A stretch of DNA of 64,000 nucleotides from Pristiophorus japonicus (Eukaryota), in contig NC_091977.1 of NCBI RefSeq assembly GCF_044704955.1, forward strand, positions 195,176,001 to 195,240,000. The letters are read 5' to 3'. Numbering within the stretch: the stretch's first letter is position 1; each line of letters opens with the position of its first letter. Shown here piece after piece: positions 22,835 to 60,129 of the stretch. A program made the position numbers and the translations under genes. The notes under the pieces are model-generated. The model saw only the letters and a list, made by a program, of their open reading frames with translations, was not told where the DNA came from and made no database searches.

Positions 22835-25371
22835 GAAACATAGAAACATAGAAACACAGAAAATAGGTGCAGGAGTAGGCCATTTGGCCCTTCGAGCCTG
22901 CACCGCCATTCAATGAGTTCATGGCTGAACATGCAACTTCAGTACCCCATTCCTGCTTTCTCGCCATACCCTTTGATCCCCTTAGTAGTAAGGACTACAT
23001 CTAACTCCTTTTTGAATATATTTAGTGAATTGGCCTCAACAACTTCCTGTGGTAGAAAGTTCCACAGGTTCACCACTCTCTGGGTGAAGAAGTTTCTCCT
23101 CATCTCAGTCCTAAATGGCTTACCCCTTATCCTTAGACTGTGACCCCTGGTTCTGGACTTCCCCAACACTGCATCTAACCTGTCTAAACCCGTCAGAATT
23201 TTAAACGTTTCTATGAGATCCCCTCTCATTCTTCTGAACTCCAGTGAATATAAGCCCAGTTGATCCAGTCTTTCTTCATAGGTTAGTCCCGACATCCCGG
23301 GAATCAGTCTGGTGAACCTTCGCTGCACTCCCTCAATAGCAAGAGTGTCCTTCCTCAAGTTAGGAGACCAAAACTGTACACAATACTCCAGGTGTGGCCT
23401 CACCAAGGCCCTGTATAACTGTAATAACACCCCCCCTGCCCTTGTACTCAAATCCCCTCGATATGAAGGCCAACATGACATTTGCTTTCTTAACCGCCTG
23501 CTGTAGCTGCATGCCAACCTTCAATGACTGATGTACCATGACACCCAGGTCTCGTTGCACCTCCCCTTTTCCTAATCTGTCACCATTCAGATAATAGTCT
23601 GTCTCTCTGTTTTTACCACCAAAGTGGATAACCTCACATTTATCCACATTATACTTCATCTGCCATGCATTTGCCCACTCACCTAACCTATCCAAGTCAC
23701 TCTGCAGCCTCATAGCATCCTCCTCGCAGTTCACACTGCCACCCAACTTAGTGTCATCCACAAATTTGGAGATACTACATTTAATCCCCTCGTCTAAATC
23801 ATTAATGTACAATGTAAACAGCTGGGACCCCAGCACAGAACCTTGCGGTACCCCACTAGTCACTGCCTGCCATTCTGAAAAGTACCCATTTACTCCTACT
23901 CTTTGCTTCCTGTCTGCCAACCAGTTCTCAATCCACGTCAGCACACTACCCCCAATCCCATGTGCTTTAACTTTGCACATTAATCTCTTGTGTGGGACCT
24001 TGTCGAAAGCCTTCTGAAAGTCCAAATACACCACATCAATTGGTTCTCCCTTGTCCACTCTACTGGAAACATCCTCAATAAATTCCAGAAGATTTGTCAA
24101 GCATGGTTTCCCTTTCACAAATCCATGCTGACTTGGACCTATCATGTCACCTCTTTCCAAAAGCGCTGCTATGACATATTTAATAATTGATTCGATCATT
24201 TTACCCACCACCGATGTTAGGCTGACTGGTCCATAATTCCCTGTTTTCTCTCTCCCTCCTTTTTTAAAAAGGGGGGTTACATTGGCTACCCTCCACTCCA
24301 TAGGAACTGATCCAGAGTCTATGGAATGTTGGAAAATGATTGTCAATGCATCTGCTATTTCCAAGGCCACCTCCTTAAGTACTCTGGGATGCAATCCATC
24401 AGGCCCTGGGGATTTATCAGCCTTCAATCCCATCAATTTCCCCAACACAATTTCCCGACTAATAAGGATTTCCCTCAGTTCCTCCTTCTTACTAGACCCT
24501 CTGACCCCTTTTATATCCGGAAGGTTGTTTGTGTCCTCCTTAGTGAATACCGAACCAAATTACTTGTTCAATTGGTCTGCCATTTCTTTGTTCCCCGTTA
24601 TGACTTCCCCTGATTCTGACTGCAGGGGACCTATGTTTGTCTTTACTAACCTTTTTCTCTTTACATATCTATAGAAGCTTTTGCAGTCCGTTTTAATGTT
24701 CCCTGCAAGCTTCCTCTCGTACTCTATTTTCCCTGCCTAAATCAAACCCTTTGTCCTCCTCTGCTGAGTTCTAAATTTCTCCCTGTCCCTGGGTTCGTTG
24801 CTATTTCTGGCCAATTTGTATGCCACTTCTTTGGCTTTAATACTATCCCTGATTCCCCTTGATAGCCACGGTTGAGCCACCTTCCATTTTTTATTTTTAC
24901 GCCAGACAGGGATGTACAATTGTTGTAGTTCATCCATGCGGTCTCTCAATGTCTGCCATTGCCCATCCACTGTCAACCCCTTAAGTATCATTCGCCAATC
25001 TATCCTAGCCAATTCACGCCTCATACCTTCAAAGTTACCCTTCTTTAAGTTCTGGACCATGGTCTCTGAATTAACTGTTTCATTCTCCATCCTAATGTAG
25101 AATTCCACCATATTATGGTCACTCTTCCCCAAGGGGCCGCGCACAACGAGATTGCTAATTAATCCTCTCTCATTACACAACACCCAGTCTAAGATGGCCT
25201 CCCCCCTAGTTGGCTCCTCGACATATTGGTCTAGAAAACCATCCCTTATGCACTCCAGGAAATCCTCCTCCATTGTATTGCTTCCAGTTTGGTTAGCCCA
25301 ATCTATATGCATATTAAAGATAACTGCTGCACCTTTATTGCATGCACCCATAATTTCCTGTTTGATGCCCT
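22835..25371 (-). mobile_element. CR1 LINE, 5'-truncated, same young subfamily as 52707-56243, inserted in an L2 remnant
   Basis: Minus ORFs 24737-25429, 23360-24448 and 22939-23517 are near-identical in translation to the 968-aa ORF2, with frameshifts and small deletions. (gaaacata)n tail. Confidence 0.95.
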
Positions 25372-26015
25372 GTCTCTGGAGGAGATTAAAGATAGAAAGG
25401 GATGAAACCATGAAAGGATTTAAACACAAAGATGAGAATTCCTGGATGGGAAGTCAGCCAGAGGAACTTAGGAAACTAGGGCTCAATTTTCCCTGGTCAT
25501 TTGCTCCGTTTTTTTGGTGCGTGCTGTTTTTTCTGGCGTATTTATTTTTTTCCATGTTTCCCCTTGTGATCTATGCTGGCTTAACTGACATAGTTATGAT
25601 TTTTCTAGGCCAGTTTTTTTTGACGACATAGGGGGGCGTTCACTCATGTCTGTGCCGGTTTTTCAATTGTTCGCAGTTTGGCCCACATTTTTTTCTCTTA
25701 GGTCGGCATATCTGGCCACTCCCGAAAAACCTTCTGGTGAGTTAAGAAAACCAGTACACATTCACAAATCTGCGCTGAAAGACGCCATTGTTTTTAAATC
25801 GAAGATTTTGGAGCGAGTCAAGAAATCTGTCAAAATCAATAATAAAGCTCAATTTTTTTTACCTGTCAACGTAGAAGTGTAAATTGGAGAGAGAGAGAGA
25901 GATAACTAACTAACAAGGTGTGGTCCATCCATATAGACCTGGAGAGGTACAACTGCAAACCTGTGCTGCCTGCTTTCCTGCCATTTTGAGCTTCTTTCAA
26001 AGGTTAAATTTAAGT

Positions 26016-51712: not shown

Positions 51713-52706
51713 GTATATTGGCAGGCAAAATAGTATCAAACAATGGGCTGCCTTTAAAGAGGAGATGATTCGGGTACAGTCGAGGTACATTCCCAACTAA
51801 AGCCAGAGCTTCTTGGATGATGAAAGAGATAGAATAAGATGAAGTAGAAAAAGAGCGCATATGAAGTTGTCAGGTTGAGAATACAAGTAAGAAACAGACT
51901 GAATATAGAAAGCTCAGGGGGGATGTGAAGAAGAAAATGAGAGGCAAAGAGAGAGTATGAGAATAGATTGGCAGCCAACATAAAAGGGAATTCAAAAGTC
52001 TTTTATAGGCATATAAATAATAAACAAATAATAAGAGAAGGGGTGGGGCTGATTAGGGTCCAAAAAGGAGACATATGCATGGAGGCAGAGCATGGCTGAG
52101 GTAATAAATGAGTATTTTGCATCTGTCTTCACTATGGAAGAAGATGTTGTCAAAGTCATAGTGAAAGAGGAGGTAATGGAGATACTGCATGAGAGATAAA
52201 TTGATAAAGAGGAGGTTCTAGAAAGGCTGGCTGTACTTAAAGTTGATAAGTCACCAGGACCGGATGGGATGCATCCTTGGATGCTGAGGGAAGTTAAGGA
52301 GGAAATCGCGGACATACTGGACATAATACTTCAATCCTCCTTAGATACAGAGGTGGTGCAAGAGGATTGGAGAATTGCAAATATTACACGCTTGTTCAAA
52401 AAAGGATGTAAGGATAAACCCAGCAATTATAGGCCAGTTAGTTTAACCTCGGTGGTGGGGAAGCTTTTAGAAACGATAATCGGGGACAAAGTTAACAGTC
52501 ACTTGTACAAGTGTGGATTACTTAACGAAAGCCAGTACATATTTGTTAAAGGCAAATCACATTTAACGAACTTGATTGAGTTTTTGATGAGGTAACAGAG
52601 AGGATTGATGAGGGAAATGCGGTTGATTTGGTGTACATAGACTTCCAAAAGGCATTTGATAAAGTGCCACATAATAGGCTTGCCAGCCAAAGTTGAAGCC
52701 CATGGA

Positions 52707-53159
52707 CGCAACCGAGACTCCAGGATGGTATGTTGCCTCCCTGGTGCAAGGGTCAAAGATGTCTCGGAGTGGGTGCAGGACATTCTAAAAAGGGAGGGAG
52801 ATCAGCCAGTTGTCGTGGTGCACATTGGTACCAACGACATAGGTAAAAAAAGGGATGAGGTCCTCCGAAACGAATTTAGAGAGCTAGGAGCTAAATTAAA
52901 AAGTAGGACCTCAAAAGTAGTAATCTCGGGATTGCTACCAGTGCCACGTGATAGTCAGAGTAGGAATCGCAGGATAGCGCAGATGAATACGTGGCTTGAG
53001 CAGTGGTGCAGCAGGGAGGGATTCAAATTCCTGGGGCATTGGAACCGGTTCTGGGGGAAATGGGACCAGTACAAACTGGACGGTCTGCACCTGGGCAGGA
53101 CCGGAACCAATGTCCTAGGGGGAGTGTTTGCTAGTGATATTGGGGAGGAGTTAAACTAA
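52707..53159 (+). CDS. CR1 ORF1 C-terminal SGNH/GDSL esterase-like domain (5'-truncated)
   Basis: CLPGA (block II), VVVHIGTND (block III) and DGLHL (block V). The first 17 codons of the called ORF come from the host CR1. Confidence 0.9.
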   Translation, partial: RNRDSRMVCCLPGARVKDVSEWVQDILKREGDQPVVVVHIGTNDIGKKRDEVLRNEFRELGAKLKSRTSKVVISGLLPVPRDSQSRNRRIAQMNTWLEQWCSREGFKFLGHWNRFWGKWDQYKLDGLHLGRTGTNVLGGVFASDIGEELN

Positions 53160-53236
53160 TATGGCAGGGGGATGGGAACCAATGCAGGGAGACAGAGGGA
53201 AACAAAAAGGAGGCAAAAGCAAAAGACAGAAACGAG

Positions 53237-56143
53237 ATGAGGAAAAGTGGAGGGCAGAGAAACCCAAGGCAAAGAACAAAAAGGGCCACTGTACAGCAAA
53301 ATTCTAAAAGGACAAAGGGTGTTAAAAAAACAAGCCTGAAGGCTTTGTGTCTTAATGCAAGGAGTATCCGCAATAAGGTGGATGAATTAACTGTGCAAAT
53401 AGATGTTAACAAATATGATGTGATTGGGATTACGGAGACGTGGCTCCAGGATGATCAGGGCTGGGAACTCAACATCCAGGGGTATTCAACATTTAGGAAA
53501 GATAGAATAAAAGGAAAAGGAGATGGGGTAGCATTGCTGGTTAAGGAGGAAATTAAGGCAATAGTTCGGAAGGACATTAGCTTGGATGATGTGGAATCTA
53601 TATGGGTAGAGCTGCAGAATACCAAAGGGCAAAAAACGTTAGTGGGAGTTGTGTACAGACCTCCAAACAGTAGTAGTGATGTTGGGGAGGGCATCAAACA
53701 TGAAATTAGGGGTGCGTGCAATAAAGGTGCAGCAGTTATAATGGGTGACTTTAATATGCACACAGATTGGGTTAACCAAACTGGAAGCAATACGGTGGGG
53801 GAGGATTTCCTGGAGTGCATAAGGGATGGTTTTTTAGACCAATATGTCGAGGAACCAACTAGGGGGGAGGCCATCTTAGACTGGGTGTTGTGTAATGAGA
53901 GAGGATTAATTAGCAATCTCATTGTGCGAGACCCCTTGGGGAAGAGTGACCATAATATGGTGGAATTCTGCATTAGGATGGAGAATGAAACAGTTAATTC
54001 AGAGACCATGGTCCAGAACTTAAAGAAGGGTAACTTTGAAGGTAGGAGGCGTGAATTGGCTAGGATAGATTGGCGAATGATACTGAAGGGGTTGACTGTG
54101 GATGGGCAATGGCAGACATTTAGAGACCGCATGGATGAATTACAACAATTGTACATTCCTGTCTGGCGTAAAAATAAAAATGGGAAGGTGGCTCAACCGT
54201 GGCTATCAAGGGAAATCAGGAATAGTATTAAAGCCAAGGAAGTGGCATACAAATTGGCCAGAAATAGCAGCGAACCCGGGGACTGGGAGAAATTTAGAAC
54301 TCAGCAGAGGAGGACAAAGGGTTTGATTAGGGCAGGGAAAATGGAGTACGAGAAGAAGCTTGCAGGGAACATTAAGACGGATTGCAAAAGTTTCTATAGA
54401 TATGTAAAGAGAAAAAGGTTAGTAAAGACAAACATAGGTCCCCTGCAGTCAGAATCAGGGGAAGTCATAACGGGGAACAAAGAAATGGCGGACCAATTGA
54501 ACAAGTACTTTGGTTCGGTATTCACTGAGGAGGACACAAACAACCTTCCGGATATAAAAGGGGTCGGAGGGTCTAGTAAGGAGGAGGAACTGAGGGAAAT
54601 CCTTATTAGTCGGGAAATTGTGTTGGGGAAATTGATGGGATTGAAGACCGATAAATCCCCAGGGCCTGATGGACTGCATCCCAGAGTACTTAAGGAGGTG
54701 GCCTTGGAAATAGTGGATGCATTGACAGTCATTTTCCAACATTCCATTGACTCTGGATCAGTTCCTATGGAGTGGAGGGTAGCCAATGTAACCCCACTTT
54801 TTAAAAAAGGAGGGAGAGAGATAACAGGGAATTATAGACCGGTCAGCCTGACATCGGTAGTGGGTAAAATGATGGAATCAATTATTAAGGATGTCATAGC
54901 AGTGCATTTGGAAAGAGGTGATATGATAGGTCCAAGTCAGCATGGATTTGTGAAAGGGAAATCATGCTTGACAAATCTTCTGGAATTTTTTGAGGATGTT
55001 TCCAGTAGAGTGGACAAGGGAGAACCAGTTGATGTGGTATATTTGGACTTTCAGAAGGCTTTCGACAAGGTCCCACGCAAGAGATTAATGTGCAAAGTTA
55101 AAGCACATGGGATTGGGGGTAGTGTGCTGACATGGATTGAGAACTGGTTGTCAGACAGGAAGCAAAGAGTAGGAGTAAATGGGGACTTTTCAGAATGGCA
55201 GGCAGTGACTAGTGGGGTACCGCAAGGTTCTGTGCTGGGGCCCCAGCTGTTTACATTGTACATTAATGATTTAGATGAGGGGATTAAATGTAGTATCTCC
55301 AAATTTGCGGATGACACTAAGTTGGGTGACAGTGTGAGCTGCGAGGAGGATGCTATGAGGCTGCAGAGCGACTTGGATAGGTTAGGTGAGTGGGCAAATG
55401 CATGGCAGATGAAGTATAATGTGGATAAATGTGAGGTTATCCACTTTGGTGGTAAAAACAGAGAGACAGACTATTATCTGAATGATGACAGATTAGGAAA
55501 AGGCGAGGTGCAACGAGACCTGGGTGTCATGGTACATCAGTCATTGAAGGTTGGCATGCAGGTACAGCAGGCGGTTAAGAAAGCAAATGGCATGTTGGCC
55601 TTCATAGCGAGGGGATTTGAGTACAGGGGCAGGGAGGTGTTGCTACAGTTGTACAGGGCCTTGGTGAGGCCACACCTGGAGTATTGTGTACAGTTTTGGT
55701 CTCCTAACCTGAGGAAGGACATTCTTGCTATTGAGGGAGTGCAGCGAAGGTTCACCAGACTGATTCCCGGGATGGCGGGACTGACCTATCAAGAAAGACT
55801 GGATCAACTGGGCTTGTATTCACTGGAGTTCAGAAGAATGAGAGGGGACCTCATAGAAATGTTTAAAATTCTGACGGGGTTAGACAGGTTAGATGCAGGA
55901 AGAATGTTCCCAATGTTGGGGAAGTCCAGAACCAGGGGACACAGTCTAAGGATAAGGGGGAAGCCATTTAGGACCGAGATGAGGAGGAATTTCTTCACCC
56001 AGAGAGTGGTGAACCTGTGGAATTCTCTACCACAGAAAGTTGTTGAGGCCAATTCACTAAATATATTCAAAAAGGAGTTAGATGGAGTCCTTACTACTAG
56101 GGGAATCAAGGGGTATGGTGAGAAAGCAGGAATGGGGTACTGA
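53237..56143 (+). CDS. CR1 ORF2: APE endonuclease plus reverse transcriptase, 968 aa (frame open from 53138)
   Basis: EN: LNARSI, ITETW, VYRPP, MGDFN, LDWVL, SDHN. RT: SPGPDG, YRPVSLTS, QHGF, DFQKAFD, GVPQGSVLGP, KFADD. C-terminal RTRGH and RNFFTQRVVNLWN. Confidence 0.97.
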   Translation: MRKSGGQRNPRQRTKRATVQQNSKRTKGVKKTSLKALCLNARSIRNKVDELTVQIDVNKYDVIGITETWLQDDQGWELNIQGYSTFRKDRIKGKGDGVALLVKEEIKAIVRKDISLDDVESIWVELQNTKGQKTLVGVVYRPPNSSSDVGEGIKHEIRGACNKGAAVIMGDFNMHTDWVNQTGSNTVGEDFLECIRDGFLDQYVEEPTRGEAILDWVLCNERGLISNLIVRDPLGKSDHNMVEFCIRMENETVNSETMVQNLKKGNFEGRRRELARIDWRMILKGLTVDGQWQTFRDRMDELQQLYIPVWRKNKNGKVAQPWLSREIRNSIKAKEVAYKLARNSSEPGDWEKFRTQQRRTKGLIRAGKMEYEKKLAGNIKTDCKSFYRYVKRKRLVKTNIGPLQSESGEVITGNKEMADQLNKYFGSVFTEEDTNNLPDIKGVGGSSKEEELREILISREIVLGKLMGLKTDKSPGPDGLHPRVLKEVALEIVDALTVIFQHSIDSGSVPMEWRVANVTPLFKKGGREITGNYRPVSLTSVVGKMMESIIKDVIAVHLERGDMIGPSQHGFVKGKSCLTNLLEFFEDVSSRVDKGEPVDVVYLDFQKAFDKVPRKRLMCKVKAHGIGGSVLTWIENWLSDRKQRVGVNGDFSEWQAVTSGVPQGSVLGPQLFTLYINDLDEGIKCSISKFADDTKLGDSVSCEEDAMRLQSDLDRLGEWANAWQMKYNVDKCEVIHFGGKNRETDYYLNDDRLGKGEVQRDLGVMVHQSLKVGMQVQQAVKKANGMLAFIARGFEYRGREVLLQLYRALVRPHLEYCVQFWSPNLRKDILAIEGVQRRFTRLIPGMAGLTYQERLDQLGLYSLEFRRMRGDLIEMFKILTGLDRLDAGRMFPMLGKSRTRGHSLRIRGKPFRTEMRRNFFTQRVVNLWNSLPQKVVEANSLNIFKKELDGVLTTRGIKGYGEKAGMGY

Positions 56144-57337
56144 AGTTGCATGTTCAGCCATGAACTCATTGAATGGCGGTGCAGGCTAGAAGGGCCGAAT
56201 GGCCTACTCCTGCACCTATTTTCTATGTTTCTATGTTTCTGTGAATAAAAGGGACAGTGATAGCATGGATACAAAATTGGCTAAGTGACAGGAAAGAGCA
56301 AGTAGTGTTGAACGTTGTTTTTCAGACTGGAGGAAGTATACAGTAATGTTACCCAGGAGTCAGTACTAGGACCACTGCTTTTCTTGATAGATATTAATGA
56401 TTTAGACTTTGGTGTACAGCGCACATTTCAAAATTTGTAGATGAAATCAAACTTGAAAGTATTATGAACAGTGAGGAGAATAGTGATCGACTTCAAGAGG
56501 ATATAGACAGACTGGTGGAATGTGTGAACACATGGCAGATTAAATTTAATGCAGTAAAGTGCAAAGTGGTACATTTTGCTAGGAAGAATGAGATATAAAC
56601 TAAAGTGTGCAATCCTAAAGGGGGTGCATATACAGAGAGACGGGGGTGTATGTGTACAAATCGTTGAAGGTGGCAGGGCAGGTTGAGAAAGTGGTTAAAA
56701 CAACGTAAGGGATCCTGGGCTCTATAAATAGAGGCATTGTACAAAAGCAAGGAAGTTATGTTGAACCTTTCTAAAATACTGGTTCGGCCTCAACTGGAGT
56801 ATTGTGTCCAATTCTGGGTACCGCACTTTAGGAAGGATGTGAAGGCCTTAGAAAGGGTGCAGGAAAGATTTACAAGAATGATTCCAAGGATGAGGGACTT
56901 CAGTTACATGAATACATTGCAGAATCTGGGGTGGTTCTTCTTAGAGCAGAGAAGGTTGAGAGGAGATTTGATAGAGGTGTTCAAAATCATGAGGGTTCTA
57001 GACAGAGTAGATAGAGAGAAACTGTTCCCATTGGAGAAAGGGTCAAGAACCAGAGAACACAGATTTAAGGTGATTGGCAGAGGAACCAAAGGCGACATGA
57101 GGAAAAACCTTTTACATAGCGAGTGGTTAGGATCTGGAATGCATGCCTGAAAGGGTGGTGGAGGCAGACTCAATCATGGCTTTCAAAAGGAATTGGATAA
57201 GTACCTGAAGGGAAATAATTTGTATGGCTACGGGGAAAGTGGGACTAGCTGTAGAGCTCTTGCAGAGTGCCAGCACGGGCTCAATGGGCCGAATGGCCTC
57301 CTTCTGTGCTGTAACCATTCTATGATTCTACTCCAAT

Positions 57338-59672: not shown

Positions 59673-60129
59673 CCATTATCAATCTGAGTAACTTTCATTC
59701 ATATTGGTCTTTAAAGCCATTACTCCCATCGCCATTTCTGCCAAAATATTGTGAACTTTGTCTGCATGGGAAATTAAGTCCAGCTCACAGATATTCTGGA
59801 AACAAACACTTGGATTCGGTCCCGGGTGCCATACACAGGACAAAATACAAAGTTGCATAATGTCTGCAAATACGTTCATTATCTGCTCCCACAATTAACA
59901 TGCCAACCGCCAAGAAATTACAGACATTTTTATCTCCTTTTGACACGAAGTGGAATGTCTCTCTTATAATTTGTTGTGTGTCTTCACTATAGCTTTCATA
60001 GAATTTGGAGAGGCGTGACTTGCCGTGTTCATGTTTGGTAGAGCTATATCATTTCACATGGTTAGGATGATCTATTTTTATATTGGCTATATGTTTTGGA
60101 TGTTAACTTTTAATTTTACCACAGCTACT

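Follow-up and report, generated by a model that had tools for sequence, protein, structure and literature searches.

Reviews call the translation of LINE ORF2 an open question (PMC3894237), and the working model, drawn from L1 and SART1, is reinitiation: in both, translation of ORF2 depends on that of ORF1 (PMC2881922, PMC3894237, PMC10275272). Both elements share with CR1 a bicistronic RNA, and in SART1 ORF2 is also placed −1 relative to ORF1. Frameshifting in a LINE has a precedent: according to a review, ORF2 of two APE-type non-LTR elements of the L1 group in Dictyostelium, TRE5-A and TRE3-A, needs a −1 frameshift (PMC5911963); these differ from CR1 in clade and in ORF1. The canonical signal for −1 programmed ribosomal frameshifting (PRF) has an RNA structure 5-9 nt downstream (PMC7618472). 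In arteriviruses and coronaviruses, G_UUA_AAC (EAV) and U_UUA_AAC (IBV) are the ORF1a/1b −1 sites, the −1 product carries the polymerase, and the heptamers on which mammalian ribosomes shift most readily include U_UUA_AAC and G_GGA_AAC (PMC5009743). The PRRSV nsp2 site works with nsp1beta and PCBP on a C-rich motif with a 10-nt spacer and no RNA structure, and is efficient at 9-11 nt (PMC4937337).

CR1 is described as the dominant retrotransposon of most chordates. The vertebrate esterase-type CR1 (CR1 subgroup 7, ORF1 type IVB, PMC4120745; ‘Canonical-CR1’, bioRxiv 10.64898/2026.01.13.699120) has an ORF1 with Cys pairs and an SGNH domain, an ORF2 with APE and RT, and short 3′ repeats, as does the element analysed here. 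The available text of these two sources on esterase-type CR1 gives no account of how ORF2 is translated, and that of the second, a 2026 chordate survey, does not contain the words ‘frameshift’ or ‘overlap’. A literature search found no paper describing this junction for CR1.

The window is a stretch of 64,000 nucleotides of the Pristiophorus japonicus genome (NC_091977.1, positions 195,176,001 to 195,240,000). The features relevant to the junction are the following.

51944-52690 and 56245-57237 (tblastn): ORF2 pieces of an older CR1 copy, flanking the young copy
52704..56240, + strand: young CR1 LINE copy, 5′-truncated; 95-96% identity to four copies with a longer ORF1 begins at 52704
52704..53159, + strand: 3′ half of ORF1, SGNH/GDSL esterase domain and TAA (residues 165-315 of the full copy)
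53138..56143, + strand: ORF2 frame (−1), with basic linker, APE endonuclease and reverse transcriptase; 1001 open codons
53150..53156, + strand: candidate slippery heptamer G_TTA_AAC, in phase with the last two ORF1 codons; T_TTA_AAC in other lineages
53157..53159, + strand: ORF1 stop, immediately following the heptamer; 17/18 representatives have TAA or TAG
53167..53171, + strand: GGGGG, candidate stimulator, nt 11-15 after the heptamer (10-nt spacer)
53174..53199, + strand: three further G3 runs, the first common to most relatives, the last two specific to the window family
53237..53239, + strand: first in-frame ORF2 ATG, whose position varies between lineages
53354..53356, + strand: codon for the Asn in the first endonuclease motif (CLNARS); it lies 204 nt after the first base of the heptamer
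56221..56240, + strand: 3′ end, 8-nt repeats (TTCTATGT unit, 2.5 copies), no poly(A), read from the sequence

The element carries PF13472 in ORF1 and PF03372, PF14529 and PF00078 in ORF2; its esterase matches PDB 4C1B (E 1.4e-39), and the zinc-finger-like ORF1 N-terminus of a full copy, P0001, has two CxxC pairs, the window copy having only the esterase half. In a tree of esterases, the window ORF1 falls among proteins of birds, reptiles, amphibians and fish and is separate from those of L2 type. By its domains, the element is an esterase-type CR1 LINE, its probable placement in CR1 rather than L2 being based on the esterase tree. Short tandem 3′ repeats without poly(A) are typical of CR1. The copy has no 5′ UTR and keeps only residues 165-315 of ORF1. 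It is nested in the older element, whose tblastn alignment breaks off at aa 649 and continues from aa 655. Truncation and nesting had escaped the earlier note; they make this copy a record of the family's design rather than a likely source of a fusion protein.

The earlier note had proposed that the ORF1/ORF2 junction (53135-53240) has the architecture of a −1 frameshift cassette, and its description proved exact at every coordinate. ORF1 ends GAG TTA AAC TAA, with the stop at 53157-53159; the ORF2 frame is −1 to ORF1 and open from 53138, a 22-nt overlap; its first in-frame ATG, at 53237, is codon 29, counting the heptamer's first codon as 0. The ATG at 53161 is out of frame, as are those at 53172 and 53182. 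The four G-runs lie at 53167-71, 53174-76, 53187-89 and 53197-99, and the sequence does yield the predicted junction peptide, EELN-LIWQGDG. The heptamer has the form X_XXY_YYZ in phase, with one mismatch in the window's G_UUA_AAC (the EAV form), and the downstream ORF is open in −1 from the slip site. Heptamers of the relaxed form occur in phase at 13 of the 995 codon positions of the window element's ORF2 (2/995 for the strict form), so that one at the junction would be a chance event of about 1%, before conservation is considered. Heptamer, phase and the polymerase in the −1 product are as in the arterivirus and coronavirus sites, although the host is a LINE and not an RNA virus. Within the P. 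japonicus genome, 44,721 exact matches to the junction pattern were counted.

Conservation was examined in 18 lineage representatives: nine subfamily majorities from this genome and nine metagenome loci, the latter a selected sample, chosen for carrying the site. The frame anchor was the Asn of the CLNARS motif. The last Leu-Asn of ORF1 is encoded TTA AAC in all 18, and the preceding base is T in 16, across six different amino acids, and G in the two of the window family. As a control, all six Leu codons occur at the invariant Leu of DGLHL, and three codons at the invariant Gly, in the same representatives. An unselected check was made with 47 loci fetched by ORF1 alignment, seven of which also carry the endonuclease. 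In all seven of these outside loci T_TTA_AAC is followed by a stop and the endonuclease lies in the −1 frame, with linkers of 35-90 codons where measured. Five loci found in prokaryote genome contigs had no endonuclease, and a search of viral contigs for CR1 found none. The ORF1 ending TTTAAACTAG, which the earlier note had ascribed to other vertebrate CR1s, is real, being seen in bird-type and sturgeon-type loci.

Three families of this genome were sampled by the ORF1 motif alone, A being the window family and B and C older ones. (G/T)TTAAAC was found in 27 of 28 copies of A, and exact TTTAAAC in 26/43 copies of B and 26/47 of C, the remainder being mostly one or two changes off. Within the window family, exact matches have G as base 1 in 21,791 cases and another base in 4,900; that base was T in 90 of the first 100 listed. 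In contigs of two other organisms, base 53150 is T at ~93% and ~98% of depth. The −1 frame is kept up to the endonuclease in 18/28 (A), 19/30 (B) and 16/34 (oldest family) measured copies, its loss in many old copies being due to decay and indels in the G-run. Judged by codon use, it is the nucleotides of the heptamer that are conserved, beyond protein need. Heptamer, phase and open −1 frame thus held across subfamilies and distant lineages, and the candidate slip site is common to shark-, bird- and sturgeon-type CR1 relatives. None of the sequence observations that the earlier note had named as contrary to its proposal was made: a proximal in-frame ATG does occur in some lineages, but is not conserved.

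A protein-level need for the terminal Leu-Asn was considered and ruled out by the codon fixation and by structure 4C1B. This related L2-type esterase ends without LN, and the tree branch with L2-type and non-LINE esterases has LN in 0/15, which means that the esterase fold does not need it. Of 173 homologues of ORF1 whose esterase end is complete, 109 end in LN and 11 in GN. Once these are collapsed, LN is preceded by a residue incompatible with a T-ending codon in only 1 of 55 (the Glu of the window family), and GN by Gln in 8 of 10, the residue expected from G_GGA_AAC. The Fisher p for the GN group is 8e-8, a value that overstates independence because this group is essentially one clade. In that clade 13 of 24 proteins end otherwise, as does another clade of 11. 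The Gln-Gly-Asn end of this sister group, known from proteins only, would fit G_GGA_AAC; a search for DNA of the group found none.

We now turn to where ORF2 could begin. In nine of 13 lineages the first in-frame Met is at codon 3, 4, 4, 4, 19, 22, 29, 43 or 52; in the other four (two subfamilies of 20 and 11 copies, L071 and L091) no AUG precedes the endonuclease Asn. As the earlier note expected, there is no conserved AUG for ORF2 across the lineages compared, and this holds for subfamilies and distant lineages. ORF2 might instead start at the internal ATG 53237, reached by leaky scanning or by reinitiation over a long range; heptamer and overlap would then be incidental or serve the ORF1 C-terminus. 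This ATG lies 39 codons before the endonuclease Asn, and 27 of the 29 closest scored copies have it, the other two being frameshifted upstream of it, but these copies are 96-98% identical and its retention reflects shared descent. Given that the position of the ATG varies between lineages, four of which have none, and that codon choice is fixed beyond protein need, an internal start is largely refuted for the clade, and we hold it to be very improbable.

A restart beside the stop, at an AUG or non-AUG codon, with TTTAAAC-stop and the G-run as the signal, would follow the model of SART1 and L1, and it equally predicts a frame open from the stop onward. The SART1-type stop-start TAATG is found in the ORF2 frame in one of nine subfamily majorities (5 copies), where the window has TAATA, and in four of seven bird-type loci an in-frame ATG lies 2 nt past the stop. 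However, the codon that overlaps the stop can be ATA, ATT, GCT, AAT, GAT or ATG, mostly followed by TGG or AGT, so that no near-cognate start is shared at or after the stop. Such a restart also leaves unexplained the exact X_XXA_AAC, the preceding T or G, the switch to Gln-Gly-Asn and the fixed −1 relation. We consider it unlikely, although less so than an internal start.

The two frames could also be joined at the RNA level, by splicing at the AG of TTTAAACTAG or by polymerase slippage on the T/A runs. TAG-ending lineages do supply a YAG, and two ray gene models (P0032 and P0296) run from the esterase directly into the −1 frame. Both models may represent individual copies that carry an indel in the G-run preceding the site. 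Moreover, 8 of the 18 representatives, window family included, have TAA and no AG at the site, the T/A runs amount to three T and three A, and joints across the site came from single low-depth contigs, in runs of unspecified kind. This is the least probable explanation of those considered. A search for longer fused proteins gave two matches, both host gene models, which cannot tell the readings apart. As to expression, four RNA runs, all labelled as other species, gave 0 matching reads, a result that does not bear on the question.

We come back to a frameshift, and to what could stimulate it. All five positions nt 11-15 after the heptamer are G in 13/13 vertebrate-type representatives, including two synonymous third positions, and a run of at least four G starts at nt 11 in 26/28 copies of the window family and 30/41 of family B. 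The earlier note had suggested a G-quadruplex made of the four runs, which did not withstand comparison. Four G3 runs with loops of at most 12 nt occur in 2/15 representatives, both of the window family, and none of the 15 has them with loops of at most 7 nt; in L071 there is just one G-run. Four other places in the element equal the G4Hunter-type score of 1.40 obtained in the window. The four-G3 quadruplex was rejected as stimulator, being unconserved; a two-tier pattern is present in 9/15.

Folding without pseudoknots gave no fold common to the 13 vertebrate-type representatives, so that, in contrast to the arterivirus and coronavirus sites, they have no conserved structure 5-9 nt downstream. 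Folding z outside the window family ranged from −1.1 to +1.3, and the window family's hairpin (5 bp, −7 to −8 kcal/mol) is weak and unshared. With no Rfam match at the junction and only this weak family-specific fold, a local hairpin or pseudoknot was rejected. Hairpins at nt 10-11 exist in two distant lineages only, L091 (z −2.45) and L101 (z −1.42). A long-range partner for the G-run was rejected as well, the best duplex having −17.5 kcal/mol vs −16.7 +/− 2.7 for control 18-mers; the sole shared C-run, ~410 nt upstream within the coding sequence of ORF1, probably reflects constraint on the protein. The GGGGG does have the form required for protein-stimulated PRF, an unstructured motif at a fixed 9-11 nt spacer. 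The likeness to PRRSV nsp2, a short homopolymer-rich motif without structure at a 10-nt spacer, is an analogy and not membership, as the CR1 motif is G5 and not C-rich, the heptamer is another one and a binding factor is only putative.

Based on the junction sequences, we conclude that ORF2 of esterase-type CR1 is likely translated by a programmed −1 frameshift on (G/U)_UUA_AAC, giving an ORF1-ORF2 fusion. The majority of ribosomes would terminate at UAA or UAG and release ORF1p, while a minority would slip one base back on UUA AAC and continue into ORF2, producing a fusion of esterase, linker, endonuclease and RT. Slippage would set a high ORF1p:ORF2p ratio, like gag-pol frameshifts. The pause may come from the unstructured G5 run at the 10-nt spacer, probably protein-bound by analogy with PRRSV nsp2, a step with less support, and slow termination at the adjacent stop possibly helps; in the two distant lineages a hairpin at about the same place would act instead of G5. 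We counted against the frameshift the imperfect G_ form of the most abundant family in this genome, the lack of a conserved stem-loop in vertebrate-type lineages, the TAATG subfamily and the bird-type ATGs near the stop, as well as the GN-clade proteins ending otherwise and the loss of the −1 frame in the oldest family. Some CR1 lineages have lost ORF1 entirely (bioRxiv 10.64898/2026.01.13.699120), which implies that ORF2p does not need an attached esterase.

If the frameshift is true, a virus-type slip site in CR1, within a cassette of less than 100 nt, would be a second route to LINE ORF2 translation and would account for ORF2 frames without a start codon. The predicted ORF2 protein would be an N-terminal esterase fusion of ~1,310 aa, not a free EN-RT, and CR1 mobility would become sensitive to host frameshift inhibitors. 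Should the G5 run be the stimulator, it would represent a new kind of frameshift signal in animal cells. Much more tentatively, this clade, one of the commonest among vertebrate retrotransposons, might make its RT as a Gag-Pol-like fusion by a −1 shift driven by a G5-bound protein and not by RNA structure, with a signal that predates vertebrates and relatives that use G_GGA_AAC or a hairpin.

The junction lies in a CR1 copy that is truncated at its 5′ end and inserted in an older element:

52704-56240: CR1-type LINE copy, 5′-truncated in mid-ORF1, nested in an older CR1

ORF2 of the older host element is interrupted at 52690 and resumes at 56245. What is left of ORF1 in the younger copy corresponds to residues 165-315 of a full copy and encodes a GDSL/SGNH esterase, whose closest named protein is from Pristiophorus japonicus itself (sawshark, 96%), while ORF2 encodes an APE endonuclease and RT over 1001 open codons. 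Since it has neither a 5′ UTR nor an ORF1 start, this copy is a record of the family design and not a likely source of protein. On rechecking the sequence, all coordinates in the earlier note (heptamer, stop, frames, ATGs and G-runs) were correct: the heptamer G_TTA_AAC occupies 53150-53156, the ORF1 stop follows at 53157-53159, and ORF2 is in the -1 frame. The surroundings are rich in related debris. Another young member of this family (22942-25372, minus strand, ∼91% amino acid identity to ORF2) is truncated within the endonuclease and hence lacks the junction, and many older CR1-like ORF2 fragments, several of them nested, lie on both strands between 3648 and 59682; the window holds a single ORF1 remnant. 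At 59788-60048 on the minus strand lies an intronless-looking fragment with a match to PF01217, the clathrin adaptor small chain family; it is probably what remains of a processed pseudogene for an adaptor sigma subunit.

A 21-nt junction pattern gave 44,721 exact matches genome-wide, and its reversed control none. The motif (G/T)TTAAAC was kept in all of the 30 closest copies, window included (25 G, 5 T). As these had been chosen by similarity, loci were resampled by an ORF1 motif ∼70 nt upstream of the junction, yielding 130 loci, or 118 once duplicates were removed. In family A, to which the window copy belongs (n = 28), 25 copies had G_TTA_AAC, 2 had T_TTA_AAC and 1 another sequence. In the older family B, exact TTTAAAC was found in 26 of 43 copies and a recognisable junction in 41; in C, the oldest, the figures were 26 and 42 of 47. 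The distance from the junction to the asparagine of the first endonuclease motif was a multiple of three in 18/28, 19/30 and 16/34 measured copies of A, B and C respectively, the others carrying indels, many within G-runs. The -1 frame was open to the endonuclease in 6 of 9 subfamily majorities, the other three being small, old clusters of 5, 3 and 3 copies.

Among genome-wide exact matches of family A, the first heptamer base was G in 21,791 and another base in 4,900; the first 100 non-G matches listed comprised 90 T, 10 A and no C. From these counts, the two amplified states of family A correspond to the two heptamer forms known from viruses (excerpts of PMC5009743), and few master lineages may have been involved. 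Ten family A copies (L178, L181, L183, L187 and six more) form a cluster whose majority sequence departs from the endonuclease directly after NARSIRN and then runs into sequence unrelated to it; the cluster may represent a non-autonomous derivative, internally deleted and amplified, in which the slip site is retained.

ORF1 homologues ending in Leu-Asn (LN) occur in sharks, rays, coelacanth, frogs, birds, turtles, a snake, a monitor lizard and sturgeon; in most of them the His motif of the esterase stands 26 residues before this ending. Of 263 ORF1 homologues in all, whatever their ending, 173 had the His motif 20-45 residues from the end, and of these 109 ended in LN and 11 in Gly-Asn (GN). 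A shark-type CR1 ORF1 protein whose database record names it a Pseudomonas aeruginosa SGNH hydrolase (P0007) probably reflects host contamination of that record. Outside DNA was fetched with the ORF1 alignment (42 metagenome and 5 genome loci); many loci were cut by contig ends or were distant esterases, and 7 held the endonuclease. In all 7, T_TTA_AAC is followed by a stop and the endonuclease lies in the -1 frame; this includes L091, with only 27% identity to shark ORF1. TTTAAAC stood at the last profile position in 9 of the 10 loci reaching that far, L086 being the exception. In contigs of two further organisms aligned to the window, T made up ∼93% and ∼98% of depth at 53150, among the differences listed. 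The heptamer and the -1 phase, first seen in a single copy, held up in the family resample and in the outside endonuclease loci. One locus, L093:1325, has an esterase ORF, a TGA and an endonuclease-like continuation in the same frame, with no heptamer; its sequence suggests a different junction type, using readthrough or reinitiation.

Constraint at the codon level was examined in 18 representatives (subfamily majorities and metagenome loci). The last Leu was TTA and the last Asn AAC in 18/18, and the preceding base was T in 16/18, over six different amino acids. Within the same sequences, the invariant Leu of DGLHL used all six codons and an invariant Gly three; in the window ORF2, 15 of the 89 Leu codons are TTA, and 20 of the 49 for Asn are AAC. 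LN is absent from the C-terminus of 4C1B, a solved esterase of L2 type. Among 55 collapsed proteins, a residue with no T-ending codon preceded LN once (the family A Glu); one residue further back this class was found 19 times, and two residues back 20 times. The residue ahead of GN was Gln in 8 of 10 collapsed proteins, and a CAG codon would complete G_GGA_AAC, a heptamer predicted here from protein sequence. The GN proteins (P0165-P0257; listed alongside, P0166, P0189, P0216 and P0241) form essentially one clade in the esterase tree, and so count as one or a few events; the clade also contains one SKN and one FLN ending, and 13 of its 24 members end otherwise.

How ORF2 is translated was weighed against its start codons. 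A start at the internal ATG 53237 is very improbable: among the 13 representatives whose ORF2 start could be assessed, the first in-frame Met fell at codon 3, 4, 4, 4, 19, 22, 29, 43 or 52, and 4 (two subfamilies of this genome, L071 and L091) had none before the endonuclease Asn, so this ATG is not the start of the clade. Reinitiation adjoining the ORF1 stop, rather unlikely as the general route, finds support in one subfamily with TAATG at the junction and in 4 of 7 bird-type loci with an ATG two bases past the stop; it may therefore operate in some lineages or alongside frameshifting. Joining of ORF1 and ORF2 at the RNA level seems least probable of all. We consider it likely, from layout and conservation, that a -1 shift on UUA AAC would yield an ORF1-ORF2 fusion as a minor product beside the major ORF1p.

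The stimulator proposed with this frameshift cassette, a four-G-run quadruplex, did not hold: it fits 2 of 15 representatives, both from family A, with loops up to 12 nt. A two-tier quadruplex pattern is possible in 9/15, and L071 has a single G-run after the heptamer. No shared RNA fold, Rfam match or long-range partner for the G-run was found. Counting from the end of the heptamer, all 13 vertebrate-type representatives have GGGGG at nt 11-15, the run beginning at nt 11 in 10 and earlier in 3; it fixes two synonymous third positions in the -1 frame. The usual frameshift signal has an RNA structure 5-9 nt downstream of the slip site (excerpts of PMC7618472); the CR1 arrangement better fits PRRSV nsp2, where a similar 10-nt spacer leads to an unstructured motif and the stimulator is a protein complex (excerpts of PMC4937337). 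By analogy, a protein bound to the G5 run would be a candidate stimulator. Two distant loci have a hairpin instead:

L091:1628-1672: distant esterase-LINE-like locus, T_TTA_AAC, then hairpin from nt 11 (z -2.45)
L101:1513-1561: distant esterase-LINE-like locus, T_TTA_AAC, then hairpin from nt 10 (z -1.42)

Both are single sequences; L101 has a stop two codons past the heptamer, and its contig ends before any endonuclease.

The 1990s papers first describing chicken and turtle CR1 and Anopheles T1/Q may already mention the overlap or a frameshift. Among the matches listed in literature searches, most of them on the translation of CR1 or LINE ORF2, no paper described slippery sequence or frameshifting where the two ORFs of CR1 meet; the sources excerpted include PMC3894237, PMC2881922, PMC4120745, PMC10275272, PMC2734521, PMC4255032, PMC1925062 and two preprints (bioRxiv 10.64898/2026.01.13.699120 and 10.1101/2024.02.09.579686), whose supplements could bear on junction annotation. 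Dictyostelium TRE5-A and TRE3-A are stated to use a -1 frameshift (excerpts of PMC5911963), so among LINEs at large the idea has a precedent. The signal at the CR1 junction is real, resembles a recoding site and extends across the clade, within an element already known; new are the amplified G_ form of EAV type, the control by codon usage, the LN/QGN switch and the distant loci with a hairpin.
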